Shown piece by piece: positions 11,333-63,469 of a DNA stretch of 64,000 nt (the stretch's first letter is position 1; each line of letters opens with the position of its first letter). The position numbers were made by a program, and so were the translations under genes. A model generated the notes under the pieces. That model made no database searches. It saw only the letters and a program-made list of their open reading frames with translations, and had not been told where the DNA came from. The stretch is from Chlamydiales bacterium (GTDB taxonomy: Bacteria > Chlamydiota > Chlamydiia > Chlamydiales > JAJFMA01), in contig JAUXSF010000012.1 in the NCBI GenBank assembly GCA_030679955.1, positions 22,498-86,497 of the forward strand. Direction: 5' to 3'.

Positions 11333-11447
11333 GCAGGATAAGCAGGATCGCTGCGCGGCAGGATAGGCAAGATTTTTGGAAAAAAAGTTAGAATTGATCT
11401 TTTACAAAGCGTAAAAAACTAAGAATCAGTCCCCATCCTGCCTATTC
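11333..11447. repeat. 9-bp periodic palindromic block (CAGGATARG type)
   Basis: Left arm 'gcaggataagcaggatcgctgcgcggcaggataggcaag' faces 'ccccatcctgcctattcc' about 60 nt downstream. The same block forms the insertion target at 61741-62000. Confidence 0.6.
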
Positions 11448-11880
11448 CATCCGCATCAACCTAATTCTGAAAAATGCGTCGTAGAGCTCTTTACTTCAAC
11501 ATACTAATGTAAGCAACATTGAAACGTACTCTGCAGCTAATGCTGCGAAGTAGCAATTCTTATCTTAGCCCCTAGCCATACCCGAAGAATGAGGGTGGCT
11601 AGGGGTAAGATCAAAAAGCCGTTCGCGTTGCGGAGCACCGCGTCTTGGGTAACGTATTATCGTGCAATAAGATGGTTTCCAACTAGACGCGATGCTCCGC
11701 AGCGCGATGATATTACTATTCCACCCCTAGCCAACCCTCATTCTTCGGGTATGGCTAGGGGCTAAGATAAGAATTGCTGCCTCGCAGCATTAGCTGCAGA
11801 ATACACTTCAACCAATGTGACATGCATAATTTTAAAGTAGAACTATTTGCAATGAATTTTCCTGTAAAAATACTCCACAT
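11448..11880. mobile_element. MITE-like element copy 1 (left TIR present, right end missing) carrying a ~270 nt long-hairpin cargo
   Basis: Left TIR 'catccgcatcaacctaatt' at 11448-11466 has one mismatch to the copy at 61758. The cargo palindrome 11531-11800 runs from 'ctgcagctaatgctgcgaag...' to '...ctcgcagcattagctgcag'. No right TIR was found. Confidence 0.65.
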
Positions 11881-50817: not shown

Positions 50818-50880
50818 CCGCCGTTTCCTATTAAGCATGCGGCTTAGGCAGCGCTTATCGCGCATGGCAGGCTACACAGG

Positions 50881-51313
50881 CATACGCATCATAACCAACT
50901 AGATCCCATATGTTTGCATGGCATAAAACCTTCTCTATAGCGGTTTGAACAAGATTTTGAGCTAATGCTGCGAAGCAGCAATTCTTATCTTAGCCCCTAG
51001 CCATACCCGAAGAATGAGGGTTGGCTAGGGGTGGAAATATCAATATCATCGCGCTGCGAAGCATCGCGTCTACGCGTCTAGTGGAAGCCATCTTTGCAGA
51101 ATAATACGTTACCAAGACGCGGTGCTCCGCAACGCGAACGTTTTTTGATCTTACCCACAGCCAATCCTCCTGCGTCGGGTATGGCAATGGGCTAAGGTAA
51201 GAATTGCTGCTTCGCAGCATTAGCTGCAGAAGACACTCCAACCTATAAAATATGCGTAACCTGTTGAAGTACAATATTTGCAATGCATACTTATAATTAG
51301 GTTGATGCGCATG
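50881..51313. mobile_element. MITE-like element copy 2 (both TIRs, long-hairpin cargo in inverted orientation relative to copy 1)
   Basis: Left TIR 'catacgcatcataaccaac' (degenerate) and right TIR 'aattaggttgatgcgcatg' (51295-51313). The 11-bp direct repeat 'ggctacacagg' occurs at 50870-50880 and 51317-51327. The cargo spans 50960-51230. Confidence 0.7.
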
Positions 51314-60249: not shown

Positions 60250-60828
60250 ATGGCCGAGAAATACAGTTTAGAACCTTACTTTTCCTCTATTGATTCTGTC
60301 CAAAAGAATTGGAAAACATTCCTAGCTTTAGGGATCGTTCTGGTAGTCGTCGGCTTCTTAGCAATCGGCGCGGCTACAGTTACTAGTTTTGTGACGTTGC
60401 TGTTTGTGGCGATCACTTTGATCATAGCTGGTATCACCAAGCTTGTTTATTCGTTCTGGGCACGACAATGGAGCGGGTTCTTCATCTCGCTACTGAGCGG
60501 ATTGCTTTACACAGTGATCGGCGTTCTGTTTCTTGCTAAACCAATCACCGGCCTAGCAGCTCTCACACTAATGATCGGATGCCTCTTCGTTGTCAGCGGT
60601 GTGTTTAAAATCGCTGTAGCCTTTGGCTCGCGCATTCAACAGTGGGGTTGGATTCTAGCCTCCGGCGTCATCAGCCTGCTCCTAGGTATTATGGTTCTCG
60701 CAGAATGGCCAGAAGCTAGCTTATGGGTCATCGGCCTCTTCGTTGGCATCGACTTAATCTTCTACGGCTGGACCTGGATCCTTTTAGCTTTGGCAGCCAA
60801 AGAACCTAAACAACCTAAGGCTAGCTAG
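60250..60828 (+). CDS. HdeD/DUF308 family membrane protein
   Basis: 192 aa with six TMs made of repeated ~30-aa 'G...G(I/V).....G' units typical of DUF308. AAGGAG lies upstream. Confidence 0.75.
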   Translation: MAEKYSLEPYFSSIDSVQKNWKTFLALGIVLVVVGFLAIGAATVTSFVTLLFVAITLIIAGITKLVYSFWARQWSGFFISLLSGLLYTVIGVLFLAKPITGLAALTLMIGCLFVVSGVFKIAVAFGSRIQQWGWILASGVISLLLGIMVLAEWPEASLWVIGLFVGIDLIFYGWTWILLALAAKEPKQPKAS

Positions 60829-60840
60829 CTAGGAAGGTTT

Positions 60841-61629
60841 ATGAATATTGCCACTACGTGGACCGCAGAACACATGCTGGATGAATGCATCGTGGCTGTC
60901 TACGAACGCGTAACGGCAATGCACACATTTATGGGATGCTCGTACATGGTTACGGGCATCCCGCAACCTCTCCTCAACGGTGTCATCAATGCTAAGATCT
61001 CTGAGGAGGATTGCAAACACGCTGTTCCAGAGATCATCAAACAACTCGATAGTGCCGATATCCCCTACAGCTGGTGGGCAAACAACTTAACTGCACCTCC
61101 AAGTCTTTGGGAAACATTAAAAGCCAATGGGCTAAAACCTTTGATTGTCCTTCCCGGCATGTCTATCGAACTGTCTACTGAATCCACACATTCGCTACCC
61201 GATGGCGTAAGCATTCAGCGAGTAAGTGATGTGGAGTCATTACGCATCTGGGCACAGATTATCTGCACAGTCTACGACATGCGCAGCATAACAGATGATA
61301 TCGTCCGCCTTTATATGCGGGACGCTTTCTCGGACAATCTCGTCCATTTTATCGGTCAATACCTTGGAAATAGTGCTGTAGCCGGGACAATCATCTTTCG
61401 TCCAGAAGGTTTTTACATCTTTAACGTCGCAACCTTACCAGCCTTTCAGCGCTTAGGCTTGGCTCGCTCGCTCTGCAAGCATATGATAGGAAAAGCATGG
61501 GATAAAGGTTACCGCCGTGGTGTATTGCAAACTTCGTCGATGGGCGCCTCTTTCTATGAAACATTAGGCTTCAGGCCCCTTTCCGACTGCCGAGTTTTCG
61601 TCAAAACGGCCTCATGGACCAGGACCTAA
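60841..61629 (+). CDS. GNAT family N-acetyltransferase
   Basis: 262 aa. The C-terminal acetyl-CoA motif is 'VATLPAFQRLGLARSL'. Confidence 0.75.
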   Translation: MNIATTWTAEHMLDECIVAVYERVTAMHTFMGCSYMVTGIPQPLLNGVINAKISEEDCKHAVPEIIKQLDSADIPYSWWANNLTAPPSLWETLKANGLKPLIVLPGMSIELSTESTHSLPDGVSIQRVSDVESLRIWAQIICTVYDMRSITDDIVRLYMRDAFSDNLVHFIGQYLGNSAVAGTIIFRPEGFYIFNVATLPAFQRLGLARSLCKHMIGKAWDKGYRRGVLQTSSMGASFYETLGFRPLSDCRVFVKTASWTRT

Positions 61630-61690
61630 ACGACGAAAAGGACTAAATAGGTAAACTTCTGCAACTGCTTAGGTCCCCTTGTCCATCAAT
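61612..61690. repeat. TATGGACCT-family-related palindromic element
   Basis: 'catggaccaggacc...aacttctgcaa...ggtccccttgtccat'. It shares the internal 'acttctgcaa' string with the reverse complement of 37620-37680. Confidence 0.6.
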
Positions 61691-61757
61691 TAAGAAAGCT
61701 AGATCTCTTATTGTAAAGTTGTTAGAGAACAATAACCAATCCCCATCCTGCTTATCC

Positions 61758-61963
61758 CATACGCATCAACCTAATTACGGAAAATTAGTCATAAGCACAT
61801 CATTATAAATTAACTACTGATCGCAGTATATGTGAAAGCTCTTTGCAGCTAATCGCTTCGCGATTAGCTGCAGAATACTCTTAAACAAACTATACATACA
61901 TACATAATTTATTGAATTACAGTTATTTACGACTAAACTCTCAGAATTAGGTTGATGCGTATG
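61758..61963. mobile_element. MITE-like element copy 3 (206 bp, perfect 19-bp TIRs, 11-bp target-site duplication)
   Basis: Left TIR 'catacgcatcaacctaatt' (61758-61776) and right TIR 'aattaggttgatgcgtatg' (61945-61963). 'cctgcttatcc' abuts both ends directly (61747-61757 and 61964-61974). Confidence 0.85.
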
Positions 61964-62101
61964 CCTGCTTATCCTGCCGTGCAGCGATCCTGCCTATCTT
62001 GAAAAAATATTCTCCTGATTTATTTGACTAAAAACAACAAAATAAATTACGATAACAACTATTCATTTTGAAAATCATAAAAAACAAGGTAAAGTTAAAA
62101 A

Positions 62102-62383
62102 ATGGTTCATTTAGATTTATCAGTTAAAAAACCTGAAATAGGACAAGTGTCATTGGGAGAAGCAGAACAAGTGTCAGTGGAAAGAGTAAACAACACACGT
62201 ATATTACAAAGATCTCTCTTTATCGCTACGACCACGGCAGCCTCTTTAGCGTTATCGTACTTTTCTAACAATTTGCCGGAAATTGTGCTGACAGATGAAC
62301 AAAAAACAGCAATGAAAGTTTGTGTTGCACTTGTAGGACTTGTTGCTTTTTTCTCCGAAATTGGTTGCTTTGCAAGAAGATAA
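62102..62383 (+). CDS. Hypothetical small membrane protein
   Basis: 93 aa with two hydrophobic segments ('LFIATTTAASLALSYF', 'VCVALVGLVAFFSEIGCF'). Lies in an AT-rich context. Confidence 0.45.
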   Translation: MVHLDLSVKKPEIGQVSLGEAEQVSVERVNNTRILQRSLFIATTTAASLALSYFSNNLPEIVLTDEQKTAMKVCVALVGLVAFFSEIGCFARR

Positions 62384-62437
62384 AAAAAAAGGCGCGCAGT
62401 CTCTCGACCACACGCCTTCCTATTATTATGACTTAGC

Positions 62438-63157
62438 TTAGACTCGTGCCGGAAGGTGCTTACGACGCACGAAGGCTACGAGGGTTAAACCCGAAAGCAT
62501 CAACAACATGGTTGCTGGCTCAGGTACTGCCACTGCGGCGCTGCCATCAACCGCTGACATGTACAATAGCTCGTGGGTTTCACGAATCTTGATCGCTGAT
62601 ACATCGAAGTTCGAAAGTCCTAGCAACGCAAGGTTCAACTGCCCTGTAGTTGGACCAATCATGCTAAAAGCTGCTCCCCATGTGGTTTCATTAAAAACGT
62701 CCCACAACGATGGGTTCGATGCATGCTGTATATACAAGAACGGGTCATCACCAAAGTCCAAACCTTTGCTCAAGTTCACATTATTCAGGTCTATCTTAAT
62801 AGAGGTCAGATCAACTGGTGAGTTGAAGGTCGCTATAAGTTCTTCATCCCCGTCTGGAGGAGAACCCTGCATAGATTTAGAGCCCATTCCGATTGCACTC
62901 TGAACGCCAGCTCCCAAAGCATCAATCCATACTGTACCGCCCGTTCCTAACGCATTGGCGTTAAAACGGTCCGCAGTGTTGACCTGGGTACGCGCTGTTA
63001 ATTGAAAATTGGCACCTACAGGAAAAAATAAAAACCCCTTGTTTCCAACAGTTTGCGGCGGCGCCTTTAATGAGGCCGCTGATGCTGATGCACTAAATCC
63101 AAATATAGCAATAGCTAACGCTACATAGCGTCCGACTTTCTTAGTAAATAAATTCAT
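62438..63157 (-). CDS. PEP-CTERM sorting-domain protein
   Basis: Signal peptide 'AIAIFGFSASASAA'. The C-terminus is 'VPEPATMLLMLSGLTLVAFVRRKH'. Confidence 0.88.
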   Translation of the reverse strand: MNLFTKKVGRYVALAIAIFGFSASASAASLKAPPQTVGNKGFLFFPVGANFQLTARTQVNTADRFNANALGTGGTVWIDALGAGVQSAIGMGSKSMQGSPPDGDEELIATFNSPVDLTSIKIDLNNVNLSKGLDFGDDPFLYIQHASNPSLWDVFNETTWGAAFSMIGPTTGQLNLALLGLSNFDVSAIKIRETHELLYMSAVDGSAAVAVPEPATMLLMLSGLTLVAFVRRKHLPARV

Positions 63158-63469
63158 AGTTACAACCTCTGCTTTTTTTTGATAATTCTATCAAAACACC
63201 CCAATTAACTACTCAACTACTGAACTGCCTATTAACTTGCCTATACCTAATGACTATTACCTAACTAAGTTTAGTTTATGTTTATTCATTTAATTTGTCA
63301 ACTAACCCAAACTAAACATTATCGTTCTAGGATATGCTACAAGCCGCTAGCAACTGAAAATTAGAATGTTATGACACAACAAAAAAATATTATTCCGCAC
63401 TCAATATTTATAAAATATTTGTTTTAACATTATAATAGAAGAAAACCACTTAATATAAATGAGGTTTCT

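Follow-up and report, generated by a model that had tools for sequence, protein, structure and literature searches.

The analysed window is a 64,000-nucleotide stretch (C33:22498-86497) of G000, a 3.17-Mb, 41-contig metagenome-assembled genome from an uncultured environmental chlamydia. Between a GNAT-like gene that ends at 61629 and a 93-aa open reading frame (ORF) that starts at 62102 lies an intergenic 206-bp element (61758-61963), bounded on the left by the 19-bp terminal inverted repeat (TIR) CATACGCATCAACCTAATT (61758-61776, plus strand) and on the right by its exact reverse complement (61945-61963, minus strand). The two ends match exactly over 19 bp, with an imperfect extension to 37 nt at 81%. 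Both TIRs are directly abutted on the outside, with no gap, by identical copies of the 11-mer CCTGCTTATCC (61747-61757 and 61964-61974), and re-reading the sequence bears out the exact TIRs and abutting 11-bp repeats described in the original prediction. The left copy follows CCCAT, the inner flank of a host repeat, while the right copy runs into the remainder of that repeat, a 14-nt spacer TGCCGTGCAGCGAT and a second 11-mer CCTGCCTATCT (61975-61999). The element is non-coding: no ORF of at least 50 aa overlaps 61747-61974, and the 206 bp contain no terminator-like site and have no match in Rfam.

As a single strand, the element folds into a long hairpin that has a 12-bp stem at its centre, with an energy of -38.3 kcal/mol (z = -7.8). 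The central hairpin itself, GCAGCTAATCGC-TTC-GCGATTAGCTGC (61845-61871), is the stump of a long inner palindrome found in relatives of about 380 bp. Compared with such members (e.g. C34:96898-97280), the 206-bp copy is without about 166 bp of the inner palindrome and keeps only this 27-nt stump; it descends from them by internal deletion. Between its arms and those of the longer copies identity is 82-95% and, since even the nearest relatives' arms show only this level of identity, a recent insertion is not demonstrable. Nothing indicates that this copy is currently active or that its insertion affects the neighbouring genes.

The repeat family and its landing site

The 19-bp TIR occurs four times in the window at up to 3 mismatches, where 0.02 occurrences are expected, and the copy count across the genome that had been proposed as a check returns 79 copies in G000 at the same threshold and 52 at up to 1 mismatch. 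About 16 of the elements are paired and complete (120-463 bp), the remainder being solo or decayed ends, and for many TIR copies a contig end is 100-400 bp away. The interiors of the family are mosaic. A second window member of 433 bp (50881-51313) carries a long hairpin as cargo, has an internally deleted left TIR and occupies a non-repeat site, with GGCTACACAGG on both sides (50870/51317) and 3 extra nucleotides on the right. A third (11448 to approximately 11866) has an intact left TIR (1 mismatch) that abuts CCTGCCTATTC, and its right TIR is deleted. In these longer copies the cargo is a near-perfect palindrome of about 270 nt (11533-11800 and 50960-51230; arms e.g. GCTGCGAAG.AGCAATTCTTATCTTAGCCCCTAGCCATACCCGAAGAATGAGGG), and the equivalent region is lost from the 206-bp copy. 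Elsewhere in the genome some elements stand back to back and share a single 11-mer (C41:1563/1575, C32:10799/10835 and C34:97280/97330).

The 206-bp element is thus short and non-coding, has TIRs flanked by repeats of fixed length, is one of many dispersed copies and shares its TIRs with an insertion sequence (IS) described below, as expected of a miniature inverted-repeat transposable element (MITE). Among 40 related genomes examined, the 19-mer (at up to 1 mismatch) occurs only twice, both times in one distant genome, and is absent from three of the same genus, so the expansion of the family is lineage-specific. The two occurrences in the distant genome, which belongs to the same order, are isolated TIR-like 19-mers with 1 mismatch and no 11-mer flank (L001 1501-1519, on G026:C21). 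Together, the IS and the MITE family explain a large part of the short intergenic repeats in G000 and of its contig breaks, and their description tells annotators where one IS and the members of its MITE family begin and end.

In its own right, the flanking 11-mer is a repeat dispersed through the genome, where 63 exact copies stand against 1.5 expected. It usually occurs in a unit that reads CCCAT-CCTGCCTATCC-TGCCGCGCAGCGAT-CCTGCCTATCC-TGTAAAAAT or ends instead in -TGTTAAGTCC. G000 has 54 such units: 38 stand empty, and in 15 a TIR directly adjoins the first 11-mer, as at 61747. The canonical unit has two 11-mers whereas the 206-bp locus holds three, and deleting the element together with one 11-mer in silico leaves exactly the canonical arrangement of 11-mer, 14-nt spacer and 11-mer. 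The restored site is the reverse complement of the repeat at 11336-11372, and the element is therefore nested in another repeat, as had been proposed. That repeat was originally called a 9-bp periodic block; a 9-bp period does exist as the spacing of CAGGAT hexamers within it, but the block is better described as two 11-mers around a 14-nt spacer. We also considered the spacer as an excision footprint and rejected the idea, since it does not resemble the termini of the element and is conserved in the 54 copies and across genomes.

The unoccupied unit at 11336-11372, in the opposite orientation, is one arm of a further non-coding repeat that we call element B. It is approximately 110-230 bp long (about 110 bp in the window) and carries the 11-14-11 units as inverted arms, with outer flanks, TGTAAAAATGTTCC or TGTTAAGTCCCC, that are also inverted; examples lie at 11336-11447 of the window, at C21:28831-28960 of G000 and in a complete genome of the same genus, G003 (L036 1340-1570). 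The other arm of the window copy (11437-11447) carries the third MITE family member. Arms of element B number 54 in G000, 29 in G003 and 7 in the distant G026. In G003 the 29 units take the form of arms of about 50 nt within an element of about 230 bp, and neither the CATACGC-type 19-mer TIR (up to 1 mismatch) nor any match to the transposase of the resident IS was found there, which shows that the landing-pad repeat is independent of the MITE. Unoccupied units exist in both G000 and G003; the search for empty sites suggested earlier found no empty allele of this locus. A DNA search with 60250-63200 against four genomes of the same genus or family gave repeat matches only, with no orthologous intergenic region among them, and contigs of the source groundwater metagenome (run X1) contain the occupied junctions and no empty allele. 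In a second public run (X2), which contains related repeats, matches over window positions 61451-62012 comprise a fragment of the end of the GNAT-like gene at 92% identity, which stops before the element, and MITE arms of about 98% identity; the repeat family is therefore also present in a related organism elsewhere.

A resident IS4-family element and its kinship with IS231

No transposase is encoded in the window, and the reading of the element as a MITE is upheld by a complete 1563-bp IS of the IS4 family on another contig (C41:1-1563), whose gene, on the minus strand, encodes a 474-aa transposase (P0001). The gene starts with GTG, has AAGGA 8 nt upstream and forms a single ORF without a frameshift. 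The protein scores 214 bits against the NCBIfam model NF033592 'IS4 family transposase' (cut-off 115) and 78 bits against Pfam DDE_Tnp_1, and it contains the YREK motif (Y-(2)-R-(3)-E-(6)-K) as YRLRWQIELLYKSWK. A DDE transposase with YREK, a single ORF and a duplication of about one helical turn (7-13 bp), here given by the 11-bp repeats at its relatives, place the IS in the IS4 family. In X1 it assembles as a unitig of exactly 1563 bp at a depth of 52, against 14 for adjacent single-copy DNA, indicating about four identical copies; the flanks of this IS at contig ends are again the 11-mer, and left and right flanks form compatible duplication pairs in C1+C23 and C9+C41.

This IS answers the earlier call for an autonomous parent, with the caveat that its TIR, CATACGCATCAGGCTAACT, is a variant that shares 16 of 19 positions with the MITE TIR; beyond the 19 bp there is no subterminal similarity between the two. 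No autonomous IS with the exact MITE-type TIR and no other IS4-type gene of the same clade was found in the G000 assembly. Two TIR types, ACCTAATT and GGCTAACT, can be distinguished. A transposase of the P0079 type, the cognate of the MITE-type TIR, was sought in G000 with tblastn, which finds the C41 gene alone. A 451-aa DDE_Tnp_1 transposase at C17:70-1422 was likewise tried as the parent with the exact TIR and set aside, since it belongs to a different IS (C17:1-1468) that has its own TIRs, GCCCAATGGTGTTAAGTTAA (C17:1-20 and 1449-1468), and has itself landed in a MITE of the family; contig C17 begins exactly at the end of this IS. A third IS-like unit lies at the start of contig C1 (C1:1-1180), where a 283-aa DDE_Tnp_1 ORF (191-1039) stands between inverted copies of AACCCGGTTGGCTACCTATC.

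A search of genome contigs with the C41 transposase returned only a decayed copy in G006. Metagenomes contain more than 100 homologues of 466-487 aa, mostly on contigs of about 1.6 kb, and one of these is annotated as Chlamydiales. Four full-length relatives in other assemblies are flanked by perfect 11-bp direct repeats: L037, in G006 and thus from a different genus (68% aa identity), with GGATTAACAGG; L045 and L052, each with GGATATGCAGG; and L049, from another metagenome (46% aa identity), with CCTGTTTATCC. The last of these has the MITE-type TIR CATACGCATCAACCTAAG (17 of 18 positions match), so that an autonomous IS with MITE-type ends does exist, but not in G000.

The IS231 subgroup has ends of the form CAT-------AA--TAA--- and direct repeats of 10-12 bp (PMC2266710 Table 1), and is described as almost exclusive to the Bacillus cereus group (PMC2266710). 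The MITE TIR agrees with this consensus at all 8 specified positions and the TIR of the C41 IS at 7 of 8 (it has AG at positions 11-12), and the 11-bp repeats fall within the range of the subgroup. The best annotated or plasmid-borne matches of the C41 transposase are IS4 elements of the Bacillus cereus group (25-29% identity, E ~1e-35), and one IS231-like copy from Bacillus has the TIR CATGCCCATCAACTTAAG, identical to the MITE TIR at 14 of 18 positions, and an 11-bp duplication, TATGGTGACCC. The published end consensus and repeat length, this Bacillus copy and the four relatives with 11-bp duplications together vindicate the original guess of an IS4/IS231-like parent, and near-identical IS231-type ends with an 11-bp duplication reach far beyond the Bacillus cereus group. 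As transposase identity to IS231 elements is only 25-29%, the ISH8 subgroup (ends CAT-----------T-----, direct repeats of 10 bp) may offer an alternative placement.

Origin of the flanking 11-mers

Sixty-seven of 87 TIR ends directly abut an 11-mer that differs from CCTGCCTATCC or its complement at no more than 3 positions, against a genomic background of 0.24%, and this in-register precision is beyond what selection against genic insertions could produce. Direct 11-mer flanks occur at 10 paired elements, of which 5 are exact, and the exact pairs include minority variants of the 11-mer: CCTGCATATCC twice and CCTGCTTATCC, a form found in 23 of 197 copies genome-wide, once. When the right flanks were shuffled among the 10 elements, P was 0.029. 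At sites outside the repeat family the direct repeats duplicate local sequence, GGCTACACAGG at 50870/51317 and CTCGCAGG at C34:56397-56783.

Comparison of the flanks across copies, as originally proposed, thus yields direct 11-bp repeats with co-varying minority variants, but about five paired MITEs (C2:32207, C34:52381, C25:78680, C34:111327 and C5:74283) have 11-mers in inverted orientation. In such elements up to 25 nt of flank are inverted (e.g. C34:52381-52539), and the full-length relatives L042 and L043 also have inverted 11-mers. The orientations of single ends are likewise uneven: GGATAGGCAGG abuts the TIR in 44 cases and CCTGCCTATCC in 23, where a model of pure target-site duplication (TSD) predicts 1:1, and right junctions at the outer 11-mer number about 17 against 1-3 matching left junctions, an imbalance that single-11-mer target sites explain in part only. 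These anomalies may have arisen through recombination or deletion between elements in both arms of one host repeat, through the decay of partner ends, or through chimeric contigs built from short reads.

Taken with the resident transposase and the IS231-type ends, the 206-bp element is very probably a MITE of an IS4-family, IS231-like IS that generated an 11-bp TSD and is nested in another repeat. An improbable alternative is that both 11-mers were already present in a composite repeat, in which the segment bounded by the TIRs is an alternative centre shuffled by recombination. The dispersal of the 11-mer in its own right (63 exact copies), the roughly five elements in which inverted 11-mers, together with as much as 25 nt of flank, resemble extended TIRs, the 44:23 excess in flank orientation and the mosaic internal modules would all fit such a repeat. 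However, it does not account for the three 11-mers found here in place of two, or for the exact canonical unit that deletion restores; the element adds a third 11-mer to that unit, and the 11-mer is consequently not just part of a longer duplicated block, the outcome that would have spoken against the original prediction. Minority variants of the 11-mer also match across the element, elements that lie outside the repeat family have direct repeats too, and transposase-bearing relatives in four other assemblies are flanked by perfect 11-bp direct repeats.

It is considerably less probable still that a short-read assembler joined unrelated junctions through the repeated element. G000 is a MAG of 41 contigs that often break at these elements, the Logan unitigs break inside the element, and short-read IS copies that span both flanks may be chimeric, which could explain the inverted or imperfect flanks of L039-L043. 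Against this, unitigs from X1 span both junctions of the 206-bp element, running from the flank through the 11-mer and TIR to 61775 and resuming from 61908 on; these unitigs of 10.6 kb and 17.2 kb match without a mismatch and are equally deep (14.9 and 14.4), both sides show one and the same minority variant of the 11-mer, and the two flanks together make up a complete canonical unit. Site-specific recombination, in which the 11-mer would serve as an att core common to element and target and which strict site preference and the direct repeats of conserved sequence around the insert might suggest, is the least credible explanation given the perfect IS231-type TIRs, the DDE transposase, with no recombinase, encoded by related autonomous elements, and the duplication of local sequence (GGCTACACAGG, GGATTAACAGG) in place of a fixed core at non-canonical sites.

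Insertion as an IS231-like MITE would begin with a DDE transposase, acting in trans, that binds both 19-bp TIRs and excises the element by cut-and-paste, a chemistry we infer from IS231A, Tn5 and Tn10. The ends would then be joined to the target at cuts staggered by 11 bp, with gap repair duplicating the 11 bp between them. The resident IS, although its TIR differs at 3 of 19 positions, is the presumed source of the transposase for this mobilisation. Target choice would be strongly sequence-directed, at CA-GGATANNCAGG-AT within the tandem CAGGAT hexamers in the arms of the other dispersed repeat, and presumably it is the transposase itself that directly reads this sequence. On this course of events the 206-bp element would have entered the inner 11-mer of one unit between the GNAT-like gene and the 93-aa ORF.

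Target choice and comparison with known systems

All nine sites with a perfect TSD read CA-GGAT(A/T)NNCAGG-AT, that is CA-GGATANNCAGG-AT (the hyphens mark the edges of the duplicated 11-mer; the motif is also written CAGGATNNNCAGGAT and CAGGATAGGCAGGAT). The motif consists of two direct CAGGAT hexamers 9 bp apart and has no dyad symmetry. At the window's non-repeat site the motif is retained as CA-GGCTACACAGG-AG. Nearly all sites lie in one repeat family, so that the target consensus can be separated only in part from the conservation of the repeat itself. We tentatively suggest, with some doubt, that this clade of the IS4 family may read a long and fully non-palindromic target, the direct CAGGAT pair, cut at CA-GGATANNCAGG-AT. 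A palindromic-target rule holds for IS231A, Tn5, Tn10 and most DDE transposons, and a non-palindromic reading, if true, would depart from it; it would imply either asymmetric target capture or a factor, encoded by the host or the element, that is bound to the CAGGAT array. In several chlamydial lineages the IS and the landing-pad repeat occur together, which could be a stable 'safe-harbour' relation between two selfish repeats. With about 80 ends here and the metagenome relatives, the family offers a natural data set on asymmetric target choice in the IS4 family.

The closest known parallel is IS231 with its MIC231 derivatives. Shared with the former are an IS4-family DDE transposase with YREK, the end consensus, the 11-bp TSD and a marked target specificity; IS231A makes an 11-bp TSD at GGGNNNNNCCC (PMC2577343 Table 1). 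MIC231 cassettes, which carry no transposase, are mobilised in trans by the IS231 transposase (PMC6199540), and the MITEs described here are similarly transposase-less derivatives bounded by inverted repeats of the parent type. The systems differ in several respects. The host here is an environmental chlamydia, with a transposase that reaches no more than 25-29% identity to the Bacillus elements, and the target CA-GGATANNCAGG-AT is non-palindromic where GGGNNNNNCCC is a palindrome. MIC231 cassettes carry genes, whereas the MITEs here are non-coding, 120-460 bp long and have hairpin cargo, and neither a CA region nor any other subterminal sequence is common to them and the resident IS. Hallet et al. 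are said to have found, in 1991 and 1994, that IS231A favours the terminal repeats of the transposon Tn4430; the landing site here is also in the arms of another repeat.

Insertion into intergenic repeats has other precedents. IS1397, ISKpn1 and ISPpu9/10 insert specifically into REP/BIME-type intergenic repeats, and as in the present case a short motif in a dispersed intergenic repeat serves as the landing pad, with insertions that are intergenic and nested. Those elements are of the IS3 or IS110 type, with duplications of 3-4 bp or none and palindromic REP targets, in contrast to the IS4 family, the 11-bp duplication and the direct-repeat (CAGGAT x2) target seen here. Among the classical bacterial MITEs, namely Correia/NEMIS (Neisseria), RUP (Streptococcus pneumoniae) and ERIC, the TSD is TA for Correia and RUP. 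The present family resembles them in being short, non-coding, TIR-bounded and intergenic, with tens of copies, long hairpins and both full-length and internally deleted size classes, but they belong to other parent families and have other TSDs. We know of no classical bacterial MITE reported to have an 11-bp sequence-specific target. The family is thus mildly unusual in its chlamydial host, in the strong conservation of IS231-type ends across phyla and in its asymmetric, highly preferred target; in other respects it is a textbook MITE.

A more distant relative of the IS, with 34% aa identity (L021 1319-2908, on G029:C144), has the TIR CATACGCATCAAGTTAAG and flanks GGGCAACGCCC and GGGCGCTGCCC. 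Its insertion site is a GGG-N5-CCC target of the IS231A type that lies inside a local palindrome.
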